Source of the DNA: Candidatus Niyogibacteria bacterium
Lineage (GTDB): Bacteria > Patescibacteriota > Minisyncoccia > HO2-45-28
DNA length: 64,000 nt
Reading direction: 5' to 3'
Assembly: GCA_016432485.1 (NCBI GenBank)
Contig: CP066691.1
Location: forward strand, 281,762 to 345,761
A program made the position numbers and the translations under genes. Positions 15,861-41,865 of the stretch are shown piece after piece (the stretch's first letter is position 1; each line of letters starts with the position of its first letter). Below the pieces are notes generated by a model, which was not told where the DNA came from, ran no database searches, and saw nothing but the letters and a program-made list of their open reading frames with translations.

Positions 15861-15888
15861 TTTAAACTACGATATATCGTAGTTGAAA
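15861..15888. promoter_or_regulatory. 28-bp palindrome (one mismatched pair), copy 1 of the YerC-associated operator; sits in the tgt promoter region
   Basis: tttaaactacgatatatcgtagttgaaa with a perfect 20-bp core at 15865-15884. A near-identical copy lies at 16404-16431. Confidence 0.6.
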
Positions 15889-15909
15889 TAAATGCATCTG
15901 TTTTTTAAC

Positions 15910-16326
15910 TTATTCTTTATTCATCATGTCATAAAACCATTTCCATCGGCCGCGTCCTCTCGGCGGAAGACCGGCGCTCAGTAAAATTTCCAAATCGTCA
16001 ATAAATCCTCTTTTTTTCTTGGCATCAACAATAATTGCCTTTATGTTGTCAAAATCCCCGCCCCTCATCCCCTTCCACAAACGGCCTACGGTAGAAGGAC
16101 TGACCTTCAGCGTTTTTTCCACTACCGTAAAAGGGTATTTGTTAAAAAGCATCAGGATAACAGCTAAGCGTTTGGCCAGCATTATCCGTTCCGTGGACGA
16201 CAAAAGGTCACCAAAGAAAAGCCGGCCAAAATTCTTATCTTTTAAGCTGGCCATAACGGCGTAAAAACGATCATTCATTTTTAAAAATGCTTTCTTTTTT
16301 AATTTTCTCTTCGAAATATGCGGCAT
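15910..16326 (-). CDS. TrpR-like YerC/YecD-family DNA-binding protein
   Basis: LLSSTERIMLAKRLAVILML...VVEKTLKVSPSTVGRL matches the YerC/YecD TrpR-like HTH pattern. Confidence 0.6.
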   Translation of the reverse strand: MPHISKRKLKKKAFLKMNDRFYAVMASLKDKNFGRLFFGDLLSSTERIMLAKRLAVILMLFNKYPFTVVEKTLKVSPSTVGRLWKGMRGGDFDNIKAIIVDAKKKRGFIDDLEILLSAGLPPRGRGRWKWFYDMMNKE

Positions 16327-16403
16327 ATATTTATTTGTGTTTTGATATTAACATCCATACTGCCAATGCTATTAACGGTTATATTAGCTTATAAAAACCA
16401 AGC

Positions 16404-16431
16404 TTTCAACTACGATATATCGTAGTTGAAA
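16404..16431. promoter_or_regulatory. perfect 28-bp palindrome, copy 2 of the YerC-associated operator, in the yerC promoter region
   Basis: tttcaactacgatatatcgtagttgaaa; perfect inverted repeat checked base by base. Confidence 0.6.
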
Positions 16432-16473
16432 ATAGGTTGAAAATGGATTGTGAGCACTAGTAAAAGGCCTTAA

Positions 16474-16506
16474 ATAAAAAAACGCCTCGAGAAAAACTCG
16501 AGGCGA
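16474..16506 (-). terminator. intrinsic terminator
   Basis: GCCTCGAG-aaaaa-CTCGAGGC followed on the minus strand by TTTTTTTATTT, downstream of 16517-17011. Confidence 0.7.
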
Positions 16507-16516
16507 AAATCAAAAC

Positions 16517-17011
16517 TCAATTGCCGTCGGATCCTCTGCCATACGGAATTTCCGACCTCTTCTCTTCCCACTTTTCGTCAGACAAAAGATAATCTTTATA
16601 GCTTGGTCTGGTCGAGAGACCGGCCCTTTTGGCGATTCCGTGCATTTCCCAAAAACAGTGTTTACGTGCCGCGGCATTTTTCTTACATATATTCAAATTT
16701 TCCACAGCACCCCAACTCGGGGCAGGATCATCCGCCACTATCTTAGACCATCTGGCTTCGTTTTCAAATGCCGCATTAAGAAAATCGGCTTCTCGTTTCA
16801 AAGCACGGTCAACAGCACCTCGAACAATTTTTCTCCAACCATCCGCGCATCCGCAATGTCTCGGTGTAAACGGATTTATGCCAAAAGTTCTTTGGAAATC
16901 AAACAGATTTATTTCATCTTCCCACATCAGCCATCTCGGTTTGCCATGAAATAAACCCAAACAGAACCCGAATGCTACTATGATAAAGGCCAAAACAAGC
17001 AGCGCCCCCAT
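16517..17011 (-). CDS. membrane-anchored hypothetical protein
   Basis: N-terminal TM helix; Cys/Trp-containing soluble domain; no recognisable family. Confidence 0.45.
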   Translation of the reverse strand: MGALLVLAFIIVAFGFCLGLFHGKPRWLMWEDEINLFDFQRTFGINPFTPRHCGCADGWRKIVRGAVDRALKREADFLNAAFENEARWSKIVADDPAPSWGAVENLNICKKNAAARKHCFWEMHGIAKRAGLSTRPSYKDYLLSDEKWEEKRSEIPYGRGSDGN

Positions 17012-17234
17012 CCACCTTTCCTCCTTTTTTCAAGGCGCTCTTCGCCTTGGGAGACGCTCTTCGCCTCCGAGGAGAACCGAACCCCGCCCAACGAAAGCCT
17101 ATCTTTCGCGGCGGGCCAAAACGCTTTTTCAAATCCTTCGTGAGAATATCAAAAAACAGGCGCTTCGTCAAGCCCTTTATGTTTTAAAAAATAATTTCCA
17201 TTCTCTCTAAAACCTACGATCGTAAGATTTAAAT

Positions 17235-18750: not shown

Positions 18751-20904
18751 TTATATCTTTTTTCGGCGCATTAAAATAGCGTTTATCGCGACTATCACCG
18801 TGGATAGCGACATTAGGATTGCGGCCGCCGCCGGCTGTAACAATACGCCCTTAAACGCCAAAACTCCCGCAGCCAGCGGAATTGCCGCAACATTATAGCC
18901 CGCCGCCCAAAAAAGATTTTGAATCATCTTATTATATGTGAGGCGCGAAAGTTTAATTATCTTTACGATATCCCTTGGGTCGTTTCGGACAAGAATTATG
19001 CCCGCGGATTCAATGGCCACATTCGTTCCCGCGCCTATGGCTATGCCCAAATCTGCTTGCGTTAAGGCCGGCGCATCGTTAATTCCGTCCCCCACCATCG
19101 CAACCTTCATCCCTTTTTCCTGCAAAATTTTTACTTTTTCCGATTTTTCGCCCGGCAAGACCCTCGCGAAATATTCATCTATTCCCAATTCGTTTGCCAC
19201 CCACTTTGCGACATTATCCGAATCACCGGTAATCATAGCGACCCTAACGCCTTCTTCCTTAAGCGCGCGCAATGCTTCTCTTGATTCCTCACGAATTAAA
19301 TCGGATAAAGCCAGAGCGCCCAAAATAGAACCGCGGTCAAGCGCGTAAATTATAGTTTTGCCTTTTTTGTTTTCTATCTCTATTTCGCCTCGCAATTTAT
19401 CAGTTAAAGGAGACTTTACTCCTTCCAAAATCGCTTGTCCGCCGACTAAAATTTCTTTGCCGTCTATTTGGCCGCTAACCCCCTTGCCGGCAATGCGCTT
19501 GAAATTTTTTATCTCAAAGAGCGATAGGTGTTTTTCCGCCGCCGCCCTTACAATGGCTTTGGATATAAAATGCTCCGAATGAGCATCAACCGAAGCCGCC
19601 AAACGCAAAAGTTCATTTTCATTCTCCGCGCCGACATTCCAAATGTCAGTCAGTCCGTATTCTCCTTTGGTCAATGTTCCGGTTTTATCAAAAAGCACCA
19701 CATCAATTTTTCGGGCCAGCTCAAGCGCGAGACGCTGTTTAATCAAAAATCCCCGGCGCGCGGCCATAGTCGTTGATATTGAAGCCACAAGAGGAACCGC
19801 CAAACCCAAAGCGTGCGGACAAGCAATGACCAAAACCGCAACCAGCCGCTCAACGGCAAAACCAAAACCGGCTTTAGCAACAAGCCAGAAAATAAAGGCC
19901 GAGGCACCGAAAGCAATCGCGATAATGGTCAGGAAATAAGCCGCGCGGTCGGAAAGAATCTGCAGTCGGGATTTTGACGCCTGGGCTTCGCGCACCAAAC
20001 GCATGATTCCGGCCAAAAAAGTATGTTCTCCAACCTTAGTTACTTTAATTTTCAAAGCGCCGTCGCCGTTTATGGTGCCGGCGATGACTTCTGACGATGC
20101 GGATTTTTTTACCGGGGCCGATTCTCCGGTAATCATTGATTCGTTGGCTTCCGATTCTCCTTCAACAACAACTCCGTCCGTGGGAATTCTTCCGCCCGGA
20201 CGCACAAAAACAATATCTCCTTCCTTTATTTCTTCTAGACGGACTTTTTTGGGCTCGCCGTTTTTAATCACCTCGGCTTCGTCGGGTATAAGTTTTGAGA
20301 GTTCTTTAAGCGCTCCTTGCGCGCCCGAAACCGCTCTCATTTCTATCCAATGGCCCAAAAGCATAACCGTAATCAGCGAGGAAAGCTCCCAGAAAAGGCC
20401 TTCTTCGGGGCGTCCGACCAAAACGACATAAATACTATAAATGTAAGCAGCGCCTATGGCGACGGCTATCAAGGTCATCATTCCCGGCAGACGCGCTTTT
20501 AATTCCCTCGCGGCGCTCGCCAAAAAAATCCACCCGCCGTAAAAAAATATGATTGAGCCCAAAACAGCAGGAATATAAGAAGAGCCGTAAAATGCGGGCG
20601 CCCGCCACTCAAAAAGCTGATTTAAAATATCGGAATAAATCACAACCGGAATAGAGAGAATCAAACTCACCCAAAATTTTTTCAAAAACGCCTCGGTTGA
20701 ATGCCCGGCGTGCTTATCATGCTCTTTATGGTCAGTATGCTTTTTATGACTCGTGGTAATTAAATTCATTCCGCATTCATGGCAAATTCCCGGCGATTCT
20801 TCCAAAATCTCCGGATGCATGGGGCAGGTGTAAAAACTCCCGCCTTTTTCGGCAGAATCAGAATCATTTTTATGTTCCTGATGACAATAATTATGATGGT
20901 TCAT
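18751..20904 (-). CDS. heavy-metal-translocating P1B-type ATPase (CopB-like, CPH motif) with an N-terminal His-rich/CPMHPE metal-binding region
   Basis: DKTGTLT phosphorylation site, GDGINDAPAL, TM6 CPH (IACPHALG), N-terminal YTCPMHPE...CHECGM and a His-rich stretch. Confidence 0.85.
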   Translation of the reverse strand: MNHHNYCHQEHKNDSDSAEKGGSFYTCPMHPEILEESPGICHECGMNLITTSHKKHTDHKEHDKHAGHSTEAFLKKFWVSLILSIPVVIYSDILNQLFEWRAPAFYGSSYIPAVLGSIIFFYGGWIFLASAARELKARLPGMMTLIAVAIGAAYIYSIYVVLVGRPEEGLFWELSSLITVMLLGHWIEMRAVSGAQGALKELSKLIPDEAEVIKNGEPKKVRLEEIKEGDIVFVRPGGRIPTDGVVVEGESEANESMITGESAPVKKSASSEVIAGTINGDGALKIKVTKVGEHTFLAGIMRLVREAQASKSRLQILSDRAAYFLTIIAIAFGASAFIFWLVAKAGFGFAVERLVAVLVIACPHALGLAVPLVASISTTMAARRGFLIKQRLALELARKIDVVLFDKTGTLTKGEYGLTDIWNVGAENENELLRLAASVDAHSEHFISKAIVRAAAEKHLSLFEIKNFKRIAGKGVSGQIDGKEILVGGQAILEGVKSPLTDKLRGEIEIENKKGKTIIYALDRGSILGALALSDLIREESREALRALKEEGVRVAMITGDSDNVAKWVANELGIDEYFARVLPGEKSEKVKILQEKGMKVAMVGDGINDAPALTQADLGIAIGAGTNVAIESAGIILVRNDPRDIVKIIKLSRLTYNKMIQNLFWAAGYNVAAIPLAAGVLAFKGVLLQPAAAAILMSLSTVIVAINAILMRRKKI

Positions 20905-21077
20905 ACCTTACTCTTTAAAGAAAAAATAAATGACTATCCATACAGTCAAAGTATAAGACTCCAAATAAGCCGGGCATACCGCACAGTCGAATTAGGTTAC
21001 GCGCCTTTCCAGCCGGACAAAAATTTATTTTTATTTAGTTCCATATGTTTTTGTTAAGTTATTAATTTTTCCGACCT

Positions 21078-21338
21078 TTATTTTTGTTTTAACTCGTCAA
21101 ACTTTTTCTTCAACTGTTCTTCGGTCGCGCCACCAAAAGCGAAGAACTCGTCATTTACAAGAATCCCGGGGCTTGAAAGGATATTATACTTTTTAACCAT
21201 TTCTTGACCTTCGGGCGTGGTCATATCAATTTCTTCAATGGTAAGTTCGGGGTAGTCAGCTCTCATATTTTCCAAAGTTACCTTAACCGCGGCGCAATGC
21301 TGACAGCCCGGAGGACGAATAAGAGTTACCTTTAACAT
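21078..21338 (-). CDS. glutaredoxin/thioredoxin-like small protein (CxxC)
   Basis: PGCQHC active site in a roughly 85-aa thioredoxin fold. Confidence 0.6.
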   Translation of the reverse strand: MLKVTLIRPPGCQHCAAVKVTLENMRADYPELTIEEIDMTTPEGQEMVKKYNILSSPGILVNDEFFAFGGATEEQLKKKFDELKQK

Positions 21339-21360
21339 AAATTTATAATTTCTAATTATT

Positions 21361-21549
21361 CTAATTTCTAGTCACGACCTTTTTAATTCTTTTTGAAATC
21401 ATAATTACCAAAGCAATAATTATAATTGCGATAATTGGCCCCCACCAATCCGCTTCGGCCAGATTCGTTATTTCCTCTTCCCCTTCATGGGCAAATATTT
21501 TAACCAAAGGCAGAAGCAACAATATGCTTATTGAAAAAAGTTTCTTCAT
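21361..21549 (-). CDS. small membrane protein
   Basis: Signal peptide plus TM; HEGEEE motif; 4-nt overlap with the upstream gene. Confidence 0.35.
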   Translation of the reverse strand: MKKLFSISILLLLPLVKIFAHEGEEEITNLAEADWWGPIIAIIIIALVIMISKRIKKVVTRN

Positions 21550-22520
21550 AAATTTTGATTAGCGGCGTCGGTTTTACGCAAGTGAACCGCGTCCCACAAA
21601 ATAATCGCGCCAATAATGCCCGCGAATACAACCCACGGGACAATTCCGCCAATTCCCTGCGGAAGATTCAGAGACGATTCAATAATCGCCGATTCCGCTA
21701 TTTTTGGAAACGCAACCTCCAAAAATCTGTTCCATCCCTGATGGATAATTGAATCCTCAAACCAGGCCATTCCAAAAAATCCATAATTAAATATAAACGC
21801 GCCTAACGCCACCAGGGCCCATGCGACCCATCGTTTTACTTTTTCCTGATAAAAACTTAATTTGTTCATTGCGTTAATTCCCAATACCGCAAGCACAACA
21901 AGGAATAAAAGCGGCACAATTCTTCCAAGTCCGTGAAGCGCGCCCAACGACGCGCCGACCGTCGGAATACCGAGAGTCGCGACATAACCAAAGAGAATAT
22001 AGAAAGCGGGATTCGGACATCCCACGCCGGCATTGCCGAGAAAGAATCCCAAAAAGAAACTGCGGATATAATCATTTTTGCCCTGTAAAGATCGCGGGAG
22101 AATTGTTTGTTTGAAAGGCAGTTTGAATTTAATCAGATTAAGTTCGGAAACGCCGAATACCAGCGCCGCGATTCCGCCCAAAAGCAACATCCATGTTATA
22201 ACTTTATACAAAGCGACAAAACCCCCGAGCCAGCCAAGAGCCATTCCGTAAAGAGTAAAAGTAAGGGTTAATCCCAAACCGAAAAGAAAGGCCATAGTAA
22301 GTCCTTTGCCGATTTTACGCGAAAGCGCTAACGGCACGATGATAAATACCAGCGGAAAGGTGCATGGCAAAAAAATCATTGAGATGCCGGCAAGAAAAGC
22401 AAGAGAATATCCCGGAATAAATTCCGGCGATGTCCATAAGCTAAAGAGTCCCACCAAAATTATTGAAAGCAGAATAAAAGCCGCGGCTGTTAGCCAGATT
22501 TTAATTATATTTACACCCAT
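21546..22520 (-). CDS. DsbD/CcdA-family thiol-disulfide transporter-like membrane protein
   Basis: Polytopic; two conserved Cys in TM segments (FLPCTFP and GVGCPNPAF), resembling the CcdA/DsbD transmembrane domain. Confidence 0.5.
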   Translation of the reverse strand: MGVNIIKIWLTAAAFILLSIILVGLFSLWTSPEFIPGYSLAFLAGISMIFLPCTFPLVFIIVPLALSRKIGKGLTMAFLFGLGLTLTFTLYGMALGWLGGFVALYKVITWMLLLGGIAALVFGVSELNLIKFKLPFKQTILPRSLQGKNDYIRSFFLGFFLGNAGVGCPNPAFYILFGYVATLGIPTVGASLGALHGLGRIVPLLFLVVLAVLGINAMNKLSFYQEKVKRWVAWALVALGAFIFNYGFFGMAWFEDSIIHQGWNRFLEVAFPKIAESAIIESSLNLPQGIGGIVPWVVFAGIIGAIILWDAVHLRKTDAANQNL

Positions 22521-22552
22521 AAATTTATCTTATTGTCCCTACTTATATTATA

Positions 22553-23347
22553 TCAGATGGCGCAACCGCCGGATTGCGGCTGGGAATCTACGGCGCAAGG
22601 AGAACCGGCATCCTGATTTAATTCGGGAAACCACATTGCGTTAACCTTTGCGGCAAAATCGTACATTTCTTTTTCACCCACTCCTTGTGAGGCCATCAAT
22701 TCCAAAAGCCCGAGCATGGCCATACCGTGATTGCAGTCGGGGAAATAGGTTGAATTACTGCAGCAAGGCCGATAAACATTTTTGCTGACGCGTTCAACTA
22801 ATTCCTGCTGTTCCTCGTTCAAAATCACGAATGGGTGCCTGGCATAATGCTCCATTGCGTGTCCTTTTGCCAGCGTCCACCCTCCGGTTGATGCGAATCG
22901 GGAAGCCTTGATCAAGACCTCTTCGGCCGAAGCGGGACTTTTGCCGTCATAAGTCGTCATCGGGCCATAAATTAAAATATCGTTTCTGTTGCCAAGACCC
23001 AAAGCCCATAAAAGATTTAGGATAACGCCCGAGTTTTCAGGAGTAATTTTAAGATCGCCGTTATTTTCGCCGTAAAGAAGCTGGCGCGTTTTTTCATCCA
23101 AACCGCCGCGACCCGCGTAAAGCGATTCAAATTTTTCGGCGTCAATCACGCCCACGCTTATCATTTTTACACCTAAATCGCCCCATTTAACCGGCAAGAC
23201 CGTTCCTTCCGAGAACCCTGGCGCAACCGCGGCAAGATTTTTATTTTTTTCAGCAGCCGGTTTTTGAGTATAAATCCATGCGCCTCCAAGAATAAGCGCT
23301 GAAACTACTATGGCAACCGGCAAATTAAAACTGTTTTTTATGTCCAT
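22553..23347 (-). CDS. membrane-anchored extracytoplasmic Cys-containing hypothetical protein
   Basis: N-terminal TM; CC and C..C motifs near the C-terminus; sits within the redox gene cluster. Confidence 0.4.
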   Translation of the reverse strand: MDIKNSFNLPVAIVVSALILGGAWIYTQKPAAEKNKNLAAVAPGFSEGTVLPVKWGDLGVKMISVGVIDAEKFESLYAGRGGLDEKTRQLLYGENNGDLKITPENSGVILNLLWALGLGNRNDILIYGPMTTYDGKSPASAEEVLIKASRFASTGGWTLAKGHAMEHYARHPFVILNEEQQELVERVSKNVYRPCCSNSTYFPDCNHGMAMLGLLELMASQGVGEKEMYDFAAKVNAMWFPELNQDAGSPCAVDSQPQSGGCAI

Positions 23348-23356
23348 AAATTATTT

Positions 23357-23722
23357 TTATTTTTTATTCTCTAATAAGCACCCGCTTGCCTCTGATAATT
23401 TTTCAAGACCCGTCTCACCTTCAAATCTGCGGCCGTCGGAAAGAATCCATGTCGGATAGCCGTTAATTTTTTCAGCTAAGCATTTGTCCGTTTCTTCGGT
23501 ACACTCCACATAATTCACGAGGCGAAATGAACCGGCGAAGGCCTTTTTCTCGTTTTGGCAATGCGGACACCAGTAGGCGCCGTACATAACGACGCCTCTA
23601 TCCGTAAGGCATTGCGCGAAATCGTCATATTTTCCCTCAACCGATTCTTTCGGCCAAAAAATAAATACAAATACTGCTGCTAAAATTACGGCTAATAAAA
23701 TAATCCAAATAATTTTTTTCAT
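23357..23722 (-). CDS. membrane-anchored thioredoxin-like protein
   Basis: N-terminal TM plus WCPHC active site. Confidence 0.7.
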   Translation of the reverse strand: MKKIIWIILLAVILAAVFVFIFWPKESVEGKYDDFAQCLTDRGVVMYGAYWCPHCQNEKKAFAGSFRLVNYVECTEETDKCLAEKINGYPTWILSDGRRFEGETGLEKLSEASGCLLENKK

Positions 23723-23746
23723 ACTATAGTTCGACTACGCTCACTA

Positions 23747-24304
23747 TTAACAGCAATTTTTTAACTCGTCTTCCAATTTTTCGGCTTTGGCCGAATGTTT
23801 TTTGAGATTCTCGCTTCCGCTATTTTTTCTGACAAAAAAGACGTAAACGAGCATCGTGAAAAAAACAATTTCAATGACAAATGTCGGCCAGCTCAAAGCG
23901 CCTATGGCGATGTGCGCCAAATAAAATCCGGCGACGATAACGGCAAACCTGAACCAGAAAGATTTTTCGCCTCGCCAGTTGAATTTTTTTTCCGCCTGAT
24001 ACGCAATGCCCGCAACCGTCCCGCCCATCAGAAGCGTTATTACCGGCAAATATAAATCTACCGGCGCAAAGTCGGCCAAAACCGCGAGCGTCATCAAAAT
24101 CCACGCCCCCGAAACGCCGGCGCAAAGAGCGCAAACAGAAAAAGGCAAAAATTTATTCGCGACCTTGACGCCCAAAGTTATTGCCACAAATAAAATCAAA
24201 GCAATGATTATATCCATAATTAAAGAAGAAATATTAAAGCGCCCAAAACGACCATGGCTATTCCGCCCCAAAGCCGCATATTTTTTCGTTCTTCGGCCTG
24301 CCAA
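23747..24304 (-). CDS. polytopic membrane protein with a CxxC motif, possible disulfide-bond-formation (DsbB/VKOR-like) function
   Basis: Four to five TM helices; CALC in the first TM region; C-terminal CC; adjacent to a thioredoxin-like gene. Assignment is tentative. Confidence 0.35.
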   Translation of the reverse strand: MAGRRTKKYAALGRNSHGRFGRFNISSLIMDIIIALILFVAITLGVKVANKFLPFSVCALCAGVSGAWILMTLAVLADFAPVDLYLPVITLLMGGTVAGIAYQAEKKFNWRGEKSFWFRFAVIVAGFYLAHIAIGALSWPTFVIEIVFFTMLVYVFFVRKNSGSENLKKHSAKAEKLEDELKNCC

Positions 24305-25002
24305 GCCCGAACTTTTTTAAGCAATTTCTCCTCGCTCGCGATTAAAAGAATTATCGCGAGCGGCAAAACAAATATCAGATTGTACATCAGAAGATACCCA
24401 AAACCTCTCAAATAAGTCGCGCTGTCGTGCAAAAGCCCCAAAACCATGAGATACGGACCGCCGGTGCAGGGAAACTCGCAAAGCCCGACTAAGACCCCCA
24501 AGAAAAACGCCGTCGGCATAGAGGCCTTCTCCATAAGTTGCGCCATTTTGTGATGAGCCGCGTGCGGAACTCGAAGTTTTATGGGAAATGTCGGGAAAAA
24601 TTCATTGATGACGTTAATCGCGCCAAAGGCAATGAGAAGCGACGCTCCAACTTTAGCCATAAAATGCGGGGTGTTGAATAAATGCAGGGCTTGCAAAATC
24701 CCAAGGCCGATTAAAACATAAATTACGAACACACCCAGAATGTAGAAACCGCCTATGCGCAAAATCCCCGATCGCATTTGCCCCAGACCAAAAAGAAAAG
24801 CGACGGTCAGTAAAAGAATTGAGAAAGCGCAGGGATTGATTGAATCAATCAAAGCCGCGATGCCGACCAAAGGCAGAATCCAGCGGCCGCCATCGGACCA
24901 ATTCCACAAAATTTCCGTTCCCGCGCCACCAAATCTGAAAAAAATGACCACGGCCGCAAGTAAAACCGCGAAAACAACCAAAAAAACGAATCTGGAATTC
25001 AT
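24220..25002 (-). CDS. ccdA: CcdA-like cytochrome-c-biogenesis/DsbD transmembrane-domain thiol-disulfide transporter
   Basis: Six TM helices; conserved INPCAFS and EFPCTGGP Cys motifs; about 260 aa. Confidence 0.65.
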   Translation of the reverse strand: MNSRFVFLVVFAVLLAAVVIFFRFGGAGTEILWNWSDGGRWILPLVGIAALIDSINPCAFSILLLTVAFLFGLGQMRSGILRIGGFYILGVFVIYVLIGLGILQALHLFNTPHFMAKVGASLLIAFGAINVINEFFPTFPIKLRVPHAAHHKMAQLMEKASMPTAFFLGVLVGLCEFPCTGGPYLMVLGLLHDSATYLRGFGYLLMYNLIFVLPLAIILLIASEEKLLKKVRAWQAEERKNMRLWGGIAMVVLGALIFLL

Positions 25003-25007
25003 AGTCC

Positions 25008-25496
25008 TTACGGGGTTACCGTTGCTTTAATCATAAATTCGGCAACCGGACCCGAATCATCCTCAATTATGACTTCCCTTTCAATGTAACCGATACCGGT
25101 CGGGCCGTGCGCCGCCGGATCAAATTCAACCAGAATTTCGGCTTCCTCGTTTGGTGCCAATGTTTGACCAGCTCTCGGCACAAACCCATGCCCGGGCATG
25201 CCGTAAGGCCCGTATTTCTTTCCACCTTGAATTAAAGTGGCTTCGGTACACATGCAGGAAGTGTAGATTTTTTCCATCTTAAGCGGATCGGTTCCCGAGT
25301 TGGTAATCTTGAATTTGTGATTTACCTTGCCTTTTGCCATTGAAATTGAGCCGAAATCATAGAGTTCCTCATCAAGTTTCAGAAATCCGGCCGAGGCCGA
25401 AAGCGAGGCACTTTTTTGCGGCTGTATGTATTTTAGTCCCCATAATCCCCCGACAACCAAAATTGCTACAGTTAAAGTTAAAATAATTTTTCGCAT
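25008..25496 (-). CDS. DUF1573-domain secreted protein
   Basis: Signal/TM anchor; FDFGSISMAKGKVNHKFKITNSGTDPL...SCMCT pattern typical of DUF1573. Confidence 0.6.
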   Translation of the reverse strand: MRKIILTLTVAILVVGGLWGLKYIQPQKSASLSASAGFLKLDEELYDFGSISMAKGKVNHKFKITNSGTDPLKMEKIYTSCMCTEATLIQGGKKYGPYGMPGHGFVPRAGQTLAPNEEAEILVEFDPAAHGPTGIGYIEREVIIEDDSGPVAEFMIKATVTP

Positions 25497-31270: not shown

Positions 31271-31292
31271 GTTTTGTGCCGCAAAACGCCCC

Positions 31293-31331: not shown

Positions 31332-31464
31332 GGTTGAAATCAGGCCAAAAATGTGGGAAAGTAAGGGGGATATGAAGAATCTCATGGAAAAATTGAAAAA
31401 GGTGCTTATCAAAGAGATGTTTACACATTCGGTGTTCCGCTTGATGATTTAATCAAGTAGAAAT

Positions 31465-34398: not shown

Positions 34399-34399
34399 T

Positions 34400-35374
34400 A
34401 TGTCAACGGAAATTAAACAAAAAAAACAGGACTTGGGAATTTTTTACACCGACCAGAGAATCGTGAGTTTTATATATGATATTCTTTCTGTCTGGAAAGC
34501 AAAAGAGGACGAGGATTTAAAGCGTTGGGAGAGTCGAAAACCTCATGCTCACTATCCGTCAGTTATTGATCCGGCTTGCGGCGAGGGAATCTTCTTAAAG
34601 AAAGCAGTGGAGTCCGGTTTTACCGGATACAATCCTACACATAAAGTGCCATATATTTTCGGTATTGATATAGATGAATCGGTTGTTGATAAATGGGAAT
34701 CTGTTGAGCTTCTAAATTTTTTCCACGAAGACAGAAGGGCAATGAAAAATCACTTTTATGGCCAAAACGGATTGCTTAATCTGCCGAATAGAAAATTGCC
34801 TTACAAAAAAATGGAAGACGGACTTGTACAATTTGATGCGGTTGTTGGTAATCCGCCGTATGGAGGCATCGGTCTTAAAGAAGAAGAAATGAGGGGCAAA
34901 TTGGCGGCATCCCTTTTGGAGTACGAGATATGGAAATACGCTTTTGATATACAAATAAGCAAGCAGGGAAATATGTTTGGATCCATGGCCTCTCAAAAGG
35001 ACATTGTAAATAGATTGAGAAATATGCCCATCGAAATTTTATTTCTAGAGAGATTTATACAACTTGCAAAGCCGGGCGGTTGGATAGCTATCATTATTCC
35101 AGACGGCATTTTAACCAATTCAAATTCTCACTATGTACGCGAATTTGTTAGCGAGAAAGCAAGAGTGGAAGCAATTGTTTCTTTGCCGCGAGACGCTTTC
35201 AAAAATGTTGGCACAACAGCCAAAACCAGCATTTTATTTTTACAAAAATATAAAGACCAAGGGAAAGAGCGAGATTTAAACTATCCGGTTTTTCTCGCTT
35301 CAGTCGAATCTCTTGAAGAAAAATATTTTAAAATTATAAAAGATGCTTACCAAAAGCATTATACAAAAATATGA
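34400..35374 (+). CDS. gamma-class N6-adenine DNA methyltransferase (HsdM/Eco57I-like catalytic module without TRD)
   Basis: Motif I DPACGEGIFL and motif IV VVGNPPYGG; the start is 2 nt after the SNF2 stop. Confidence 0.8.
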   Translation: MSTEIKQKKQDLGIFYTDQRIVSFIYDILSVWKAKEDEDLKRWESRKPHAHYPSVIDPACGEGIFLKKAVESGFTGYNPTHKVPYIFGIDIDESVVDKWESVELLNFFHEDRRAMKNHFYGQNGLLNLPNRKLPYKKMEDGLVQFDAVVGNPPYGGIGLKEEEMRGKLAASLLEYEIWKYAFDIQISKQGNMFGSMASQKDIVNRLRNMPIEILFLERFIQLAKPGGWIAIIIPDGILTNSNSHYVREFVSEKARVEAIVSLPRDAFKNVGTTAKTSILFLQKYKDQGKERDLNYPVFLASVESLEEKYFKIIKDAYQKHYTKI

Positions 35375-36198
35375 GCAAGAAAAATTTAGTTCAAATAACA
35401 ACAGATGAAAAAGGTCGGGAAATCGTAATGGTACGAGTGGATAAAACCCTGAAAGAAATGATGGAAGAAAAACCATCAAGTAGATGGAATGCTGCTTACT
35501 GGCATCCAACCTATGTTAAAAATTCAGAAGAAATAGCAGCAAGTAATTTTTCTGTAATTAAAATAGGCGACGCGGAAGAAAGATTGACTTATGGCGCAAT
35601 CGTTACTGGCGGGAAAAATTATGAGGGGAAGGGAGTATTTTTAGTCAATCAGGGAGATATCCAATTTACCGGATTAGATAATACGAATTTGAAAGAAGTT
35701 AAAAAAGCTTCTCCTTGGAATATTGAACGCGCAAAGGTTAAACTTAATTCTTTGATTTTAGCTCGATCTGGAGTTGGAGGAGTTGGTAAAAATCGAATTA
35801 CTATTATAACCAAGCCAATGAATGCGGTGGTAGATAGTTTTGTTGATGTTTTAGACCTAGACGATAAAAAAATTAATCCTGTTTATGTACTTGTCTTTTG
35901 GAAAACTATGTTTGGGAAATTACAAATTGAAAGAATAATAAATGGCGTTGGAACTGTAAATATTAGTTTTGATGAAATTAGAGAAATGAAAATACTTGAT
36001 ATTTCGGAAGGTGTTCAAGGCAATATTGAATCCGAATATAAAAAAATATCTGTCTTTCACGACAAGGCAATGGAAGCAAAGAAAAAGGGCAAGGATGTGG
36101 AATACAAAGCTAACATGGAAACCGCCGAGAGAATGCTGAAAGATTTAATCGCTAAAACCGAAGCCGTTATTCGCGGCGAGAAAAAAGATGTAATTTAA
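35371..36198 (+). CDS. HsdS-like DNA specificity protein with a single target-recognition domain
   Basis: TRD-like pattern (LTYGAIVTGG..., LILARSGVGGVGKNRITI, INGVGTVNISFDEIREMKILDISE) plus a helical conserved region. Overlaps the MTase stop by 4 nt. Confidence 0.7.
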   Translation: MSKKNLVQITTDEKGREIVMVRVDKTLKEMMEEKPSSRWNAAYWHPTYVKNSEEIAASNFSVIKIGDAEERLTYGAIVTGGKNYEGKGVFLVNQGDIQFTGLDNTNLKEVKKASPWNIERAKVKLNSLILARSGVGGVGKNRITIITKPMNAVVDSFVDVLDLDDKKINPVYVLVFWKTMFGKLQIERIINGVGTVNISFDEIREMKILDISEGVQGNIESEYKKISVFHDKAMEAKKKGKDVEYKANMETAERMLKDLIAKTEAVIRGEKKDVI

Positions 36199-36203
36199 TT
36201 TTT

Positions 36204-37997
36204 ATGCCAGAACAAAGGTCGGAAAATTCTTATATCGTAAACGACATCTTACCGTTTCTGGCAAGCAATTTTGGCTACCCGATTCATGACGCGGAGCGAG
36301 TAAAAATAAACGATGTTCCGATTTTTCGGCCAAGCGGCGGCAGAAGTGGGTCCACAATTGATATTGTCTACTATCATAACGGGGAGCCAGTTCTTCTCAT
36401 TGAAGCAAAAACTAAACATAAAACTCATGAGTCCGCATTGATAGAAGCAAAGAATTATCTAAAAAACTTTCCCATAGACAAACCGGAGTTTGCTCCGTCT
36501 GGCTTGCCCCCAAAAATTTTGGCAACAACAGTCGGTAAAAACATTAAATTTTACAAATGGAGCATAGATTATTCAAAACCAATTCCGGATTTTATAACCG
36601 AAGAAATTGAGGTTTTATCATTTGAGAAGTTGCTTTCCTACTACGGATTAATTAAAGAATATAAGGCGCGCATTTTAGAGCCCAAAAACTTTGCCACGGA
36701 TTTTTTTGACGAACTAATTTCTATTTTCAAATTTCATAAAAAAGAGAAAAAAATAACAAAGGATGTTGTCAAAGAAGTTGTTTATCAAATTCACAATTAT
36801 TTGCTGAATCCAAAAAAATACACCGGCGATTATCCTTACACCGAATTGGACTTACAAGGACAAAAAGCCGTTCGCGATCTGTTTAAGCGATTTGATTTTG
36901 TCGCTTCGCTTGGCCCGGAAATAGCCAAAGAATTTCGCAAGTCGATTTTGAGATCTTTTCAAGGCGAAGAATTCAATCAGTACCTTACCGAAAAATGCGT
37001 TATAGATTTTGTTTTCGGTCTGATTGGCAAATTGAACAAACACACGAAAGTTTTGGATTTCGAGTGTGGTAGTGGAGGATTTTTGGCGACGGCAGTCAAT
37101 CAGAACAATTTGGATTTGGAAAATGTGATGGGGATTGATATTGAGGACTTGCCTTATATCATCGCCAAAACTTACTTTGCTCTGTACTTCGGAAAAACCG
37201 GTGAGGGGTTGAATCTTGTCCCAATAAAGAAAGATAACGGCTTGTTTTATCACGGCAAGAATTGGGATTTAGTTGTGGGCAATCCCGCCGGAAGCAGTAA
37301 ATACGAACATGGCGATGAAGATAAAATTTTTGAGAATCTAAATAGTGATTTAAATAACGACGACAAAAAAGATAAAATTTCGGAGTACAATTTGTCAATT
37401 CAGCAAGCGATTCAATCCGCTCGCGTTGGCGGCAAGATTTGTTTGATACTGCCTGAAGGAGTGTTTTCAAATTCTCAAGACGAGTTTTTAAGAAAATATA
37501 TCGCCAAATATTGCAATATATTGGCAATCGTGAGCTTGCCACCGGGGTCGTTCAGAAGAGGAACAACAGTAAGCCAGTTAAGGAGAGGCGCACAATCTGC
37601 TTCAATGAAAATGTCTATTGTGTACGCGGAAAAAACCAGAGAGGTCAGGAAAAAAGAAGGATTGGAAGTTGATTTGAGGCATTTGGACTACCCGATATTT
37701 TTAGCGCACATTGATAAGGTTGATTCCGGATCAGGCGAAATCAGTGAATGGCTGGAGGAAAGATTAAACGTTGTGTTGGAGCAATGGAAAGAGTGGCAGA
37801 ATAAAGCTGAATTGAATGATATTGAAAAAATAACCACAAAGCTTGATAAAGAAGAAAAGATAAAAGAAAATCAAAAAACTTTGTTTAGCAAGGTCGAGCT
37901 CGACAAGACAAACATAGAAAAAAGTAAAAAGATAAAACCAAAAGAGGGTAAGTCAGAAACAAAGATAAGCAAAAACTTGGAAGATTTATTAAGTTAA
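36204..37997 (+). CDS. HsdR_N-type PD-(D/E)xK nuclease fused to a paralogous N6-MTase-like domain with a degenerate motif IV (NPAG) and a Lys-rich coiled-coil tail
   Basis: N-terminus GSTIDIVYYHNGEPVLLIEAKTK (D...ExK). MTase-like domain has motif I LDFECGSGGFLATAV but VVGNPAGSS in place of NPPY. Collinear similarity to the 34400-35374 protein (MGIDIE vs FGIDID, GGKICLILPEGV vs GGWIAIIIPDGI, AIVSLPP vs AIVSLPR). Confidence 0.7.
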   Translation: MPEQRSENSYIVNDILPFLASNFGYPIHDAERVKINDVPIFRPSGGRSGSTIDIVYYHNGEPVLLIEAKTKHKTHESALIEAKNYLKNFPIDKPEFAPSGLPPKILATTVGKNIKFYKWSIDYSKPIPDFITEEIEVLSFEKLLSYYGLIKEYKARILEPKNFATDFFDELISIFKFHKKEKKITKDVVKEVVYQIHNYLLNPKKYTGDYPYTELDLQGQKAVRDLFKRFDFVASLGPEIAKEFRKSILRSFQGEEFNQYLTEKCVIDFVFGLIGKLNKHTKVLDFECGSGGFLATAVNQNNLDLENVMGIDIEDLPYIIAKTYFALYFGKTGEGLNLVPIKKDNGLFYHGKNWDLVVGNPAGSSKYEHGDEDKIFENLNSDLNNDDKKDKISEYNLSIQQAIQSARVGGKICLILPEGVFSNSQDEFLRKYIAKYCNILAIVSLPPGSFRRGTTVSQLRRGAQSASMKMSIVYAEKTREVRKKEGLEVDLRHLDYPIFLAHIDKVDSGSGEISEWLEERLNVVLEQWKEWQNKAELNDIEKITTKLDKEEKIKENQKTLFSKVELDKTNIEKSKKIKPKEGKSETKISKNLEDLLS

Positions 37998-38001
37998 AAA
38001 T

Positions 38002-38919: not shown

Positions 38920-39101
38920 AAATCCTGAAAACCACATGAGTCTTGATCTGCTTAGATAAGCGGAGATGGCGCTTTGCTAATTCAGGGACCCGACACCAAA
39001 CGGCTAAATCGGTGATTTAGCCGTTTGGTTTGCCCTTGATTTTTCCCAAAATTTTTTGTAGGCTTGGAATATCTTTATGGATATCTTTATCTTCTTAAAA
39101 A

Positions 39102-39785
39102 GTGAAAAAAGATCAAAAAATATATATAAAAGAGAACGATGTTAACTTTCGGAAGCCATCCGGTGAACCAGATGGCGTGGAAAAAATGAAAGCGGGACAG
39201 AATCTCGTTTTTGTGGATGGGCCGTGGTTTAGGGCAACAAAAGATGGAAAGATTGGTTGGGTCTATGCTGACTATATATCTGAAACGAATCCGAACCCCG
39301 CACAGCAGCCACAGCAATTGATTTCTTTTGTGGAGGGATGGCCAAACTTATACAACAGCCCTGTTACTGTTGCCGTTCGCGAAATTATTAATAATGAGTT
39401 TGGGCTTGAAGCGGAGAAAATCCCGTTAAATTGTACCGAATACGTCCAGTATTGCATCAAGACAAAACTGGGCATTGTTATCGAGTGGCCATCTGACCGC
39501 CCGCGTCATGGCGGAAAATGGGCAGATATTTTTAGACGAAATAATTTGTACAAGGTTATAAATGAACCAGTTTCAAATTGTGCTGCTTGTTTTACTGATG
39601 TCCGCAAGAAAGACGGAACTTTAACAAAGGAAGGTCACGTTGCATTTGTTGAAGAAATATTTCCTGATGGCTCAATAAAAATTTCAGAGGCAAATTGGCC
39701 CAACAGCGGTATTTATAGTGAGCGTATTTTAAGCAAAGCGGATTGGCAAAATAAATATAGGTGCCGTTTTATTGATTTTTTATGA
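39102..39785 (+). CDS. SH3b plus CHAP-domain peptidoglycan hydrolase (no signal peptide)
   Basis: SH3b-like GQNLVFVDGPWFRATKDGKIGWVYADYI. CHAP Cys (CTEYVQYC) and His (GHVAFVEEI). Confidence 0.65.
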   Translation: MKKDQKIYIKENDVNFRKPSGEPDGVEKMKAGQNLVFVDGPWFRATKDGKIGWVYADYISETNPNPAQQPQQLISFVEGWPNLYNSPVTVAVREIINNEFGLEAEKIPLNCTEYVQYCIKTKLGIVIEWPSDRPRHGGKWADIFRRNNLYKVINEPVSNCAACFTDVRKKDGTLTKEGHVAFVEEIFPDGSIKISEANWPNSGIYSERILSKADWQNKYRCRFIDFL

Positions 39786-40279
39786 CAATACCGGGTCAAC
39801 AAAAAGTACGAAAAATTATTCGTGGGGACGAACAAAATAGGATTACTATTGCGGTGGTATTTTTGGCCACCTATCTAACTATTATTTTTGGGCTGTCTGA
39901 TAAAATCAGGGTATCTATAAATGATATAAACGGGATGAGCATCTTGAATGACTTGGTTTTTGCAATTTTTATAGTTTTCGGCGTCTTAATTTCATCTCTG
40001 TTTTTCTTATATCTAGTTTTCACGGCACTAAGTTTAGATTTTAATAAACAAAAAGAGGTTATTTTTGAGCAAGAGGTGAGTGAGAAAAAATTAGTTAAAG
40101 TAAGAGAAAAACTTTTTAATGCTGGAGTGCGATCTGTTTTCATTTCATTTACGTTCCCGGTTTATTATCTCTTCGTTTTGTTTAGGAAAGGTTACGGAGT
40201 ATGGACCTCCGTATTGCTGTGGGGCTTCAGTCTAGCCTTAATATATATTTTGTTATTTTTAGTTTTTAAAGACGATTAA
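39782..40279 (+). CDS. four-TM membrane protein, hypothetical
   Basis: Overlaps the CHAP gene by 4 nt. Confidence 0.45.
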   Translation: MTIPGQQKVRKIIRGDEQNRITIAVVFLATYLTIIFGLSDKIRVSINDINGMSILNDLVFAIFIVFGVLISSLFFLYLVFTALSLDFNKQKEVIFEQEVSEKKLVKVREKLFNAGVRSVFISFTFPVYYLFVLFRKGYGVWTSVLLWGFSLALIYILLFLVFKDD

Positions 40280-40311
40280 CTGGCCAACAAAAAAATTAGG
40301 AAAATAAATTT

Positions 40312-41136
40312 ATGAACGAATTTGAATATATTAAACAGCATCTGCTCAATAGATTAGAAATTGATCGCGGATACTCTCATGGTGGGGCCCAGCGTATTTT
40401 AAGAGAACAACTAAATGAATGGGAAAAAAGAAAAAATGGCATTAAAGATTTATATGGCTTGTATAGACAATTTCTTATAAGCGCGCAAAATCGGCAGGGC
40501 ATGCCTAACATTATAGGGGGAGAAAAAGGGGTTGATGAAATTTTAGAAAAAGTCATTAAGACACGACGACTTGATAAAATTGTGGAAAACTTTAAATCAC
40601 CGGAAATTCTCTTTGAGAAAATTAAAAAGGTGAGTATAACAAAAAAACATACACTGAAAAGCTCTAAAAATACATGGATTGGTTTTTGTAAATCTGTTAT
40701 ATCCAGCGCGGAGTTTTTAAAGCAGTTTAAAGATTTAAACGATTTTAGAAAGTTTGCGGATTCTTTGTATAAAGTGAGGGGAGCGCGTATGGCTCTGCCT
40801 CTTATCATAAGTGCGGAAGTTAGCGGGATTGGGTTGGCATTGGCTTGTGATATTTTAAAAGAAAGCGGATACCCAGATTATGTTAAACCCGATATTTGGA
40901 TTAAGCGCTTTGCAAAAGCTTTTGAAATTACAAAGTCAAACAGCGACTACAGAATAGCGGAGGATCTCGTGGCTTATAGTAAATCTATTAACGAACTGCC
41001 GTATGTGGTTGATAAGGCGTTCTGGTTAACTGGTAGCGGAGATTTTTATCTTAGTGGAGATAAAATCGAAAGAGTTAAAAAAGAAGATATAGAAAGTTTT
41101 GTTGAAAAATATAAAAAAGAGAAATTAACCCCATGA
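40312..41136 (+). CDS. hypothetical protein with an HhH-GPD-like motif (possible DNA glycosylase fold)
   Basis: LPLIISAEVSGIGLALACDIL followed by VKPDIWIKRF resembles the EndoIII LPGVG...VDTHIFRV arrangement. Confidence 0.35.
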   Translation: MNEFEYIKQHLLNRLEIDRGYSHGGAQRILREQLNEWEKRKNGIKDLYGLYRQFLISAQNRQGMPNIIGGEKGVDEILEKVIKTRRLDKIVENFKSPEILFEKIKKVSITKKHTLKSSKNTWIGFCKSVISSAEFLKQFKDLNDFRKFADSLYKVRGARMALPLIISAEVSGIGLALACDILKESGYPDYVKPDIWIKRFAKAFEITKSNSDYRIAEDLVAYSKSINELPYVVDKAFWLTGSGDFYLSGDKIERVKKEDIESFVEKYKKEKLTP

Positions 41137-41474
41137 CCTCAATTTTAATTTCCATAATTATTTTTCTTGCCGTGGCAGTTTTGGTGCTGGCTGTTTTTGC
41201 GCGTAAAGAAGCGGAAAAACACGGCACGAATACGAAAGATGAATTTGTCGGTATCTGCGCCTCGGCAATTGAGACGGCTTCGGAAAAAGAATCTCGCAAG
41301 CAAAAGGCGCTGGCTATGTTTGAGCGGAAAAAAGAACTCTCCAACGCCGAAATCCGCAAGACGCTCGGCGTATCTAGCCGCACGGCCGTGCGCTATTTAG
41401 ATGAATTGGAAGCGGAGGGCAAAATAGAGCAAGTCGGCAAAATCGGCCACGCCGTCACCTACCGTCTAAAATAA
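41133..41474 (+). CDS. membrane-anchored winged-HTH DNA-binding protein
   Basis: N-terminal TM plus C-terminal LSNAEIRKTLGVSSRTAVRYLDELEAEGKI HTH. Confidence 0.55.
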   Translation: MTSILISIIIFLAVAVLVLAVFARKEAEKHGTNTKDEFVGICASAIETASEKESRKQKALAMFERKKELSNAEIRKTLGVSSRTAVRYLDELEAEGKIEQVGKIGHAVTYRLK

Positions 41475-41475
41475 A

Positions 41476-41513
41476 ACAACATTCCAACATTCTGCAGAAT
41501 GTTGGAATGTTGT
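41476..41513. promoter_or_regulatory. perfect 38-bp palindrome, ArsR operator candidate, copy 1
   Basis: aacaacattccaacattctgcagaatgttggaatgttgtt, checked base by base. Located immediately upstream of the arsR-like gene. Confidence 0.6.
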
Positions 41514-41536
41514 GGCGGATGTGTTATGTTGTAAAT

Positions 41537-41806
41537 ATGGTAAAGACTTCAAGACAACTGGAAAGATATTTTAAGGGCGCGGCCAACCATCGGCGAATTG
41601 ATATCTTGTTTACGGTTGAAAAAAATGACGGGATTACGGTTGAAGAGATTGCGGATGCTCTGGAGGCAAATTTCAAGACCATCTCCCAGCACACACGCTC
41701 GCTGGTCCATGCCGGTCTGTTGAATAAACAATACCGCGGCCGTCGGGTAGCGCACTCACTTTCTCCCTATGGCAAATTTTTCCTTAAGTTCATGAAAACA
41801 TTCTAA
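41537..41806 (+). CDS. ArsR/SmtB-family transcriptional regulator
   Basis: HRRIDILFTV...ITVEEIADALEANFKTISQHTRSLVHAGLL ArsR HTH. The track start at 41507 overlaps the palindrome, so the likely true start is the ATG at 41537 (MVKTSRQL). Confidence 0.7.
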   Translation: MVKTSRQLERYFKGAANHRRIDILFTVEKNDGITVEEIADALEANFKTISQHTRSLVHAGLLNKQYRGRRVAHSLSPYGKFFLKFMKTF

Positions 41807-41830
41807 CATTCTGCAGAATGTTAGAATGTT
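41797..41830. promoter_or_regulatory. perfect 34-bp palindrome, ArsR operator candidate, copy 2, upstream of tspO
   Basis: aaacattctaacattctgcagaatgttagaatgttt; shares its core with copy 1. Confidence 0.6.
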
Positions 41831-41865
41831 ATGAATGCGCCAGACGAGTGGCGTATTGAAAAAAA

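Follow-up and report, generated by a model that had tools for sequence, protein, structure and literature searches.

Small DNA-binding regulators bracketed by pairs of long palindromes in Parcubacteria

Introduction

Why would a small regulatory gene carry a copy of the same long palindrome at each of its two ends? The question is raised by a 64-kb stretch of a Candidatus Niyogibacteria genome (contig CP066691.1, positions 281,762 to 345,761; hereafter the window, numbered from its first nucleotide), in which three unrelated genes, coding for a TrpR-family (YerC-like), a PaaX-like and an ArsR-like protein, are each bracketed by two copies of a palindrome of their own. Parcubacteria and other Patescibacteria are uncultivated bacteria with tiny genomes and very few regulators, and to our knowledge almost none of their regulatory sites are known experimentally. 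Autoregulated repressors of the TrpR, ArsR and PaaX types with palindromic operators are well known; the bracket layout is not described in the literature on Patescibacteria/candidate phyla radiation (CPR) regulators, palindromes and regulons that we searched.

We propose, with moderate confidence, that each palindrome pair represents the cognate operators of the enclosed small DNA-binding protein, and that pair and gene together form a self-contained, conserved autoregulatory module of Parcubacteria. The new features of this arrangement are (i) the bracketing of a regulator by two copies irrespective of its neighbours, found in four families across Parcubacteria; (ii) the fixed register of the upstream copy with predicted leaderless promoters; and (iii) the extra self-complementarity of each copy.

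Palindrome pairs of the window

The G+C content of the window ranges from 37 to 51%, and its genes lie on the minus strand until ~31.4 kb and on the plus strand beyond. The initial annotation had placed a palindrome on either side of three regulator genes, and palindrome enumeration together with reading of the sequence recovered all six elements at their places. It had also described them as perfect, which holds for the ArsR-like pair, the TrpR-like upstream copy and the core of the PaaX-like upstream copy, whereas the TrpR-like and PaaX-like downstream copies are near-perfect. The 30-bp direct repeat reported for the PaaX-like locus is present, with 29 of its 30 positions identical. The start of the ArsR-like gene, previously set at 41507, was corrected to 41537, which gives a protein of 89 amino acids (aa), as in the homologues.

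Long palindromes are indeed rare by chance: the window contains seven perfect palindromes of at least 20 bp, compared with 0.17 expected from 200 Markov shuffles. Five of these seven are bracket members; the remaining two (5082-5107 and 31294-31325) are GC-rich hairpins with no adjoining regulator. A search blind to genes for two similar palindromes 60-1500 bp apart returned exactly three pairs, namely the reported ones, each enclosing one small regulator gene, whereas 20 shuffled sequences yielded two pairs altogether (~0.1 expected per window). The centre-to-centre spacings of the three pairs are 319, 543 and 621 bp. With three mismatches allowed, each bracket motif is still found at exactly two places in the 64 kb, against an expectation of 0-0.03 per motif. 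Since motif counts, palindrome excess and the gene-blind pair search agree, the brackets are a real feature of this DNA.

Four small helix-turn-helix (HTH) genes were recognised among twenty open reading frames (ORFs) of the window that were scanned, and three of them are bracketed; the fourth, of the HTH_11 type, abuts the ArsR-type upstream copy. Ten further small ORFs of the window were screened and contain no additional HTH regulator. Judging by their families, the three bracketed proteins are expected to bind DNA: one belongs to the TrpR family, one is an ArsR-type HTH_5 protein, and one combines a PaaX-like winged helix with a Cas2-like fold.

Conservation of the brackets in Parcubacteria

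We further compared the brackets with homologous loci, denoted below by L and a number where they have to be told apart. The ArsR-like set comprises 80 loci from a scan with one genome per species across many Parcubacteria classes. The TrpR-like set comprises 80 loci from a profile scan of metagenome contigs, of which 72 were evaluable, and the PaaX-like set six distinct loci obtained via exact-protein look-ups. Co-conservation of palindromes and regulator, which the initial annotation had proposed as a check, was found in 76 of 80 ArsR-like, 44 of 72 TrpR-like and four of six PaaX-like loci. Because the palindromes are conserved together with the enclosed regulators in dozens of genomes and change with the protein lineage, we assign them to these regulators.

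The ArsR-like gene (41537-41806, plus strand) codes for an ArsR/MarR-type winged-helix regulator of 89 aa that matches Pfam HTH_5 at 27.5 bits (cut-off 22) and, weakly, the HlyU, ArsR and CadC structures. The usual thiolate metal sites are absent, as the sequence has no cysteine. Its upstream operator candidate (41476-41513) is perfectly palindromic over 38 bp, each arm containing two AACATTC heptads, and the downstream copy (41797-41830) is a perfect palindrome of 34 bp that includes the stop codon TAA (41804-41806). There are more than 1,200 homologues; among the 120 matches listed, identity is 78-94% and length 88-104 aa, most being 88-89 aa. Across many Parcubacteria classes the identity is 67-94%, and in the 80 loci 67-89%. 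A degenerate pattern run over the 420 kb of these loci detected 192 sites: two in 50 loci, three to seven in 26 and a single one in four. In nearly every locus one site is centred ~40 nt ahead of the ATG and another 10 nt beyond the last codon of the match; in most of the 80 loci the downstream site lies on the stop codon as it does in the window.

The upstream ArsR-type copy keeps a fixed register with promoter-like elements; all promoter assignments in this work are consensus-based predictions. In the window, the predicted promoter (41501-41537, plus strand) consists of a -35 element TTGGAA (41501-41506), which is carried by the right arm of the palindrome, and an extended -10 element TGT-TATGTT (41522-41530, the -10 proper at 41525-41530), followed after 6 nt by the ATG at 41537. 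A large class of loci, with the site centre ~43-46 nt before the ATG, shows TTGGAA-17-TGnTAnnnT with the ATG 6-9 nt further on. The sites of a second class are centred ~30-35 nt before the ATG; here the palindrome end adjoins a TATAAT box, which is 7-9 nt from the ATG. The fixed register with the -10 element and the ATG indicates that the upstream copy overlaps the predicted core promoter of an mRNA that is probably leaderless. The claim that the upstream copy sits in the regulator's own promoter thus stands as a prediction, here and for the TrpR-like gene described below. Farther than ~20 nt from the centre, ArsR-type sites are no more symmetric than column shuffles predict; the functional element is therefore taken to be ~40 bp long, and an outer covariation that perfect palindromes of 44-48 bp had suggested did not hold up in this comparison.

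In several genomes (L004/L008, L046/L049, L027/L053 and L035) there are two ArsR-like paralogues, and a separate site pair accompanies each. The second paralogue in L035 (1104-1379 and 3001-3267 for the two genes) has a variant site with the centre TTGA and the arm GTCGGAATG, which hints at ArsR-like specificities diverging within one genome. In the window, the upstream copy begins 2 nt past the stop of the HTH_11 gene (41133-41474, plus strand; Pfam HTH_11, E 8e-8), which codes for a winged-helix protein with an N-terminal membrane segment. Its homologues adjoin ArsR-type sites, or are bracketed by them, in L001, L002 and L063. Extra ArsR-type sites in the compared loci bracket an HTH_11 membrane protein, an NYN nuclease, a DUF559-type endonuclease, RhuM-Fic, PIF1 helicases and TspO, and L002 has seven sites with single genes between them.

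The ArsR-like module also lies at the right-hand edge of a low-GC island (~34-42 kb, G+C 37-39%). Translations of the ORFs at 31465-38000 read as a 977-aa SNF2-type helicase, N6-adenine methylase-like proteins of 324 and 597 aa and a 275-aa specificity-like protein. The island looks like a horizontally acquired restriction-modification or defence island.

The TrpR-like regulator (15910-16326, minus strand; 138 aa) matches Pfam Trp_repressor (PF01371) at 33.5 bits (cut-off 27, E 4.6e-8). It has 258 homologues, mostly from Parcubacteria; the domain is found in homologues too, and the solved YerC-type proteins 3KOR and 3FRW are weak sequence matches (E 2e-3). The upstream operator candidate TTTCAACTACGATATATCGTAGTTGAAA (16404-16431) is a 28-bp perfect palindrome located 77 nt before the start codon. 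Its gene-proximal end forms the -35-like TTGAAA of a promoter-like TTGAAA-17-TAATAT on the minus strand (16409-16381). The downstream copy (15861-15888) is 28 bp long with one mismatched pair, is perfect over the 20 bp of 15865-15884, and lies 21 nt past the regulator stop.

Counting as a pair only two copies with a shared core of at least 10 nt, we found both copies in the 44 loci mentioned above, which represent 40 distinct pairs, and most homologous loci have related palindromes at a distance of 0-47 nt ahead of the start codon. Within one genome, the two copies have a common core of 8-13 nt per arm. Between genomes the cores vary, among others as CTACGATATATCGTAG, GTATGATATATCATAC, TTACGATATATCGTAA, ACTGGAGTTAACTCCAGT, CTTCGATGCATCGAAG and ATACAGCGCTGTAT, which is the pattern that would be expected if operator and recognition surface evolve together. 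The TrpR-like proteins also share a nearly invariant basic C-terminal motif, AGLPPRGRGRWKW, that is absent from classical TrpR/YerC proteins. Speculatively, this AT-hook-like motif could contact the AT-rich palindrome centre GATATATC.

The PaaX-like regulator (26683-27210, minus strand; 175 aa) matches Pfam PaaX_M (PF20803) at 70.7 bits (cut-off 24); PaaX_C is missing, and no Pfam family matches the N-terminal domain. Its AlphaFold model (pLDDT 73.6) shows a winged-helix-like N-terminal domain at medium confidence, followed by a Cas2-like domain. The sequence finds no match among solved structures, and a fold search with the model ranks E. coli PaaX (8A39) first, aligned over 125 columns of winged helix and Cas2-like domain, followed by Cas2 proteins. 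An identity as CRISPR Cas2 was rejected, given a PF09827 score of 23.7 bits against a cut-off of 23.8, no CRISPR-like array in the window and no cas1 among the translated ORFs.

The PaaX-like upstream operator candidate (27248-27277) contains the 20-bp perfect core ATTCAGACGGCCGTCTGAAT (27253-27272) within an imperfect palindrome of ~40-54 bp (27236-27289). It lies 37 nt ahead of the GTG start, and a TATAAT box is found 9 nt before the start. The downstream copy (26622-26661; 40 bp, 88% complementary, core 26632-26651 with one mismatch) lies 21 nt past the stop. Both copies were found in L161, L163, L167 and L169, including perfect palindromes of 54 and 42 bp in L167 and a 36-bp palindrome over the stop codon in L161. 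Across loci the GC-rich centre is conserved (CGGCCG, GACGGCCGTC or GCGGCCGC), and the arms are lineage-specific.

A copper/thiol-redox cluster (18751-25496), with a CopA-type P-type ATPase, DsbD-like membrane and thioredoxin-like proteins, is located a few kb downstream of the PaaX-like gene. In L163 (2552-4161) a PaaX-like homologue adjoins CsoR, a DsbD-like gene and thioredoxin. A functional link between the PaaX-like regulator and copper/thiol-redox genes is possible.

The gene-blind pair scan, applied to all loci, gave 108 pairs around the focal genes. It also revealed a canonical ArsR/HTH_5 gene (86-94 aa), unrelated to the ArsR-like one, that lies between ACAATTC...GAATTGT palindromes in L023 and in L061; inspection by eye showed this bracket in L074 as well. 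As this fourth family shows the bracket too, the layout is a style of these genomes that reaches beyond three genes, in line with the lineage-wide regulatory style suggested by the initial annotation.

The downstream copy and the neighbouring genes

In the initial annotation, the second copy of each pair was the promoter element of the adjacent downstream gene, so that every pair would mark a two-gene local regulon driven from two promoters. For the ArsR-like locus of the window, the only one with a downstream copy close enough to the next start codon to overlap a core promoter, this part of the claim may hold. The next gene, coding for a TspO/MBR membrane protein (41866-42375, plus strand; Pfam TspO_MBR, E 7.5e-48), starts 35 nt past the downstream copy. 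TspO also recurs after the ArsR-like gene (L002, L006, L017 and L021) and is likely co-regulated by the ArsR-like protein. Other co-directional loci often have a -10-like box and an ATG ~20-50 nt past the downstream copy (L012, L014, L025, L034, L073, L075 and L080), and argS-type genes start 19-52 nt past the TrpR-like downstream copy.

As a general rule, however, the claim fails, since loci with convergent neighbours keep the second copy. It is equally frequent beside both kinds of neighbour in the ArsR-like set: both copies occur in 34 of the 53 loci whose next gene is co-directional and in 17 of the 25 where it is convergent, so that 17 of 51 both-copy loci are convergent. Nine of these both-copy loci have convergent ORFs of 202-625 aa that end 8-88 nt, hence at most 100 nt, from the site centre. 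Among the 40 distinct TrpR-like pairs, 16 have a convergent neighbour, five of them an ORF of at least 200 aa ending within ~200 nt. In L161, where independent database gene calls are available, MurJ converges on the PaaX-like gene. Where the next gene is far away or convergent, the downstream copy cannot be a promoter operator.

The neighbouring genes are not conserved either: they differ in almost every genome, and neighbour clustering identified no conserved downstream target, TspO being next in five of 80 loci, an argS-type gene in 11 of 80, and tgt in the window only. Together with the 26 of 80 ArsR-like loci that have three to seven sites, this speaks against a strict two-promoter model, which we regard as unlikely. 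The conserved unit is the palindrome-gene-palindrome itself.

The two other downstream copies of the window face more distant genes. The next co-directional gene after the TrpR-like bracket is tgt (queuine tRNA-ribosyltransferase, 14606-15748, minus strand; Pfam TGT, E 1e-123), which starts (15748) 112 nt from the palindrome and has a promoter-like site of its own (15780-15753), ~95 nt from the palindrome. A tandem repeat of 17 nt, ATGTTTTAAATAGAATG, present in 2.8 units with 90% matches (15798-15844), lies between the downstream palindrome and this site and may be a binding array for another factor or a part of the tgt leader. The PaaX-like bracket is followed after 118 nt by a 140-aa ORF (26081-26503, minus strand) with its own GGAGG ribosome-binding site.

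Proposed mechanism and its weight

The sites are non-random, co-conserved with the enclosed gene and co-varying with the protein lineage, and the upstream copy lies at a fixed distance from promoter-like elements and the ATG. From this pattern we infer binding, repression, a leaderless start and a role for the downstream copy. The encoded protein would bind both palindrome copies. A dimer bound to the upstream copy would block RNA polymerase, with the four-heptad ArsR-type site probably taking two dimers, and an mRNA with no leader or a short one would in this way be under negative autoregulation. At the stop codon or just past it, the downstream copy would serve as a second operator for the same protein, with an effect that depends on context. 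When a co-directional gene lies nearby, as TspO does here, the copy would overlap its promoter and couple this gene to the regulator. When the next gene is distant or convergent, the copy would most likely insulate the 3' end of the regulator gene, form a protein roadblock there, or raise local occupancy as an auxiliary site.

Several observations weigh against this proposal. The second copy goes undetected in ~35-40% of TrpR-like loci, and two of the six PaaX-like loci have the upstream copy only. The promoter of the ArsR-like gene is unlisted by the automated promoter scan. In the window, the next start is 112 nt away from the TrpR-like downstream copy and 118 nt from the PaaX-like one, which places both off any obvious core promoter, and where genes converge the downstream copy has no clear purpose. 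Finally, the self-complementarity that continues beyond the shared core and the degenerate position of ArsR-type sites that tracks its partner arm, both described in the following section, are not required by a model of a homodimer on its operator.

If the operator reading is right, a rule that uses sequence only (a small HTH gene between long palindrome copies, the upstream one in the register of a leaderless promoter) would give the likely operator directly, and could seed regulon prediction in thousands of metagenome-assembled genomes. The ArsR-like module, with 89 aa, 67-94% identity and a 40-bp four-heptad operator candidate, would be a good first biochemical target, and among the accessory genes that its sites mark are TspO, nucleases, Fic and PIF1. 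The neighbour-independent downstream copy and the extra self-complementarity raise the question of how long palindromes persist and which roles they have besides protein binding.

Extra symmetry and alternative explanations

The TrpR-like copies are self-complementary past the core that they share, by 3.2 and 3.7 nt on average for the two copies; in 41 of 80 copies the extension reaches 3 nt or more, where 2-3% would be expected. These extended flanks differ between the two copies of one locus. At positions 8-12 from the centre the TrpR-like sites are nearly uninformative when genomes are compared, yet 70-95% symmetric. Part of this symmetry is due to ascertainment, because the sites were found as palindromes. 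In ArsR-type sites the base between the heptads is C:G in 50 of 76 upstream copies and T:A in 62 of 72 downstream copies, and the stop codon forces only the left T of the latter. The extra symmetry possibly reflects a role as a DNA hairpin or cruciform, or correction by template switching; quasipalindromes tend to be 'corrected' by replication template switching (PMC7202029).

This symmetry can be built into a wider reading, in which the units are discrete, portable modules of Parcubacteria. Their end palindromes would be kept near-perfect and individually extended by hairpin/cruciform selection or by template-switch correction, and would combine the functions of an operator, a bidirectional promoter element and a transcriptional insulator or recombination hot spot. 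We rate this combination as improbable; if true, the palindromes would be no ordinary operators and would give a lineage with very small genomes its own way of insulating single-gene regulatory units and of moving them.

Another explanation holds that the unit is primarily a portable cassette whose palindromes are its ends, serving as recombination or hairpin sites or as hot spots of homologous exchange, and that regulation is secondary or serves the element's own maintenance. BLASTN of window positions 39000-44500 against the 80 ArsR-like loci fits this idea, as homology in most loci begins at 41476 and stops at ~41830, the outer palindrome edges; the same boundaries are also expected if the palindromes are the outermost constrained bases. 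The 67-94% identity of the protein across many classes, amid neighbours that differ nearly everywhere, would likewise suit a mobile unit. Further hints are the gene order relative to HTH_11, which is permuted between L001 and the window, the seven-site array of L002, the accessory or defence-like look of the genes at extra sites (NYN, DUF559/restriction endonuclease, RhuM-Fic, PIF1) and the location of the window module at the edge of a restriction-modification-like island. RAYT genes flanked by their own REP palindromes (PMC2817692) provide an analogy. However, no recombinase or transposase lies in or beside the unit among the scanned neighbours, the proteins are plain HTH binders, and neither target-site duplications nor empty sites were identified. 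The fixed register of the upstream copy with a -10 box and the ATG points to a transcriptional role, and the TrpR-like neighbours (thrS, argS, gyrB) are housekeeping genes. Taken together, we consider the cassette explanation distinctly unlikely.

The palindromes might instead act mainly as hairpins, in RNA or extruded DNA, that terminate transcription, insulate, or stabilise mRNA at both gene ends independently of the protein. The self-complementarity past the common core would suit this role, as would the position of downstream copies at stop codons, the flagging of some copies as terminator-like on one strand by a consensus scan, and a mild bias of the mismatches, read in gene orientation, towards G-T rather than A-C (49:27 and 40:24). 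Against this, each family has its own core, which is common to both copies and changes along with the protein. Transversion-type mismatches are the commonest, unlike in structured RNAs, and an Rfam scan of the whole window left the six palindromes without an RNA-family match, its sole match being an unrelated group I intron. With leaderless promoters, moreover, the upstream copy would stay outside the gene transcript. An identity as intrinsic terminators was rejected, given that 150 aligned ArsR-type sites show no conserved run of T following the stem and that the stems are AT-rich except for the PaaX-type centre; terminators of the ordinary GC-rich, T-tailed type do exist in the genome, for example at 16483-16505 beside the TrpR-like upstream copy. 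The hairpin explanation is accordingly the weakest of those considered, and we hold it to be very unlikely.

Other elements of the window

The group I intron (RF00028, 57.3 bits, E 6e-12) is located at 30815-31121. It is followed at ~31140-31170 by a tRNA-like 3' end, GGTTCGAATCC...GCGGAGCCA, for which ARAGORN gives no call, and an ORF with an HNH motif (30591-30914) overlaps its 5' part. The region 30591-31170 is probably an intron-split tRNA gene with a homing endonuclease.

The palindrome at 31294-31325, a 32-bp perfect GC-rich element CCCCCGCCTCCGGCATATGCCGGAGGCGGGGG, has the conserved flanks TTTTGTGCCGCAAAACGCCCC ... GTTTTAGGTTGAAATCAGGCCAAAA (31262-31350). A near-identical element with a different centre is present in another species (L009, ~3360-3440), and in L075 a relative brackets two genes (915-940 and 2075-2098). 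The element is conserved and is not a regulator bracket. A sign change of the GC skew and the switch of gene orientation from minus to plus occur at ~30000-31450, which is compatible with a replication origin or terminus region, or with a mere strand switch. Past a 470-aa gene, two perfect inverted-repeat arms of 26 nt, GGGGGGAGCAAAAACAAAAGCAGACG ... CGTCTGCTTTTGTTTTTGCTCCCCCC, lie 9 nt apart (44556-44616) and probably form a strong terminator hairpin.

Comparison with known systems

Among characterised regulators, the TrpR-like protein resembles TrpR and HisR: it is a small all-helical putative repressor with a Trp_repressor match and a palindrome of ~20 bp before its own gene (PMC9413887). 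The TrpR-family HisR (B. subtilis YerC) has 20-bp palindromic operators with a lineage-specific consensus, a pattern that the TrpR-like cores share, and is autoregulated in about half of the genomes studied (PMC9413887). HisR, with the operator consensus cacTTTAnnnnnnTAAAgtg, controls his or histidine-transport genes (PMC9413887). Both this consensus and that of TrpR differ from the core CTACGATATATCGTAG of the window. An orthology of the TrpR-like protein with HisR/YerC was rejected on the grounds of this operator difference and of its neighbours, which include tgt, argS, thrS and gyrB and no his or trp genes. The Parcubacteria protein is also longer (138 aa) and has the conserved basic C-terminal motif PPRGRGRWKW. 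We know of no description of a second operator copy at the 3' end of the regulator's own gene for TrpR or HisR.

In the ArsR/SmtB family (HlyU, CadC, CzrA), an inverted-repeat operator overlapping the promoter of the own operon is typical. The ArsR-like protein shares the HTH_5 winged helix and an inverted-repeat operator candidate that overlaps its own predicted promoter. It differs in its length of only 89 aa without cysteine, in the 34-40-bp palindrome of four AACATTC heptads and in the second copy over the stop codon. The PaaX-like protein has the PaaX_M domain of PaaX and of the PaaX-like Rv0674, and its predicted fold was aligned to 8A39; at 175 aa, compared with ~305 aa, it lacks the C-terminal domain, and no paa operon is nearby.

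Paired operators are found in the lac (O1/O2), gal (OE/OI) and deo systems. As in the brackets, two copies of one operator are separated by 300-620 bp, the first being at the promoter and the second within the transcribed gene or past its end; the two operators of such looping systems are helically phased and bridged by an oligomer of the repressor. In the brackets, however, the second site is at the 3' end of the regulator's own gene and not in a target operon, and there is no sign of tetramerisation. The spacing of TrpR-like pairs gave no signal of helical phasing (R 0.1-0.2), and the clustering of ArsR-like spacings in the phasing analysis is confounded by shared ancestry.

Two further systems also place palindromes next to genes. 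In integrons, an integrase lies beside cassettes that each have one attC site, an imperfect palindrome of 57-141 bp in which the core sites are conserved. We rejected integron cassettes, as the bracket sites are 20-48 bp long, mostly perfect and gene-specific, with no integrase among the scanned neighbours, in loci that were not exhaustively annotated. REP palindromes flank the RAYT transposase gene, whose product is thought to recognise them, and further copies occur elsewhere (PMC2817692, PMC3116915). The likeness is that of a single gene flanked on both sides by palindrome copies that its product presumably recognises. An identity with REP/RAYT was rejected, the bracketed genes being HTH regulators and not HUH/Y1 transposases, with two copies per motif in 64 kb. 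In addition, the compared loci have two to seven copies per 6 kb, and the upstream copy is in promoter register.

Finally, the C proteins of restriction-modification systems are very small XRE-type HTH autoregulators that have tandem palindromic C-boxes upstream only and control adjacent accessory genes. The ArsR-like module likewise borders a restriction-modification-like island, and its extra sites bracket nuclease, Fic and helicase genes. It differs from the C proteins in its ArsR-type winged helix and in having sites on both sides of the gene.

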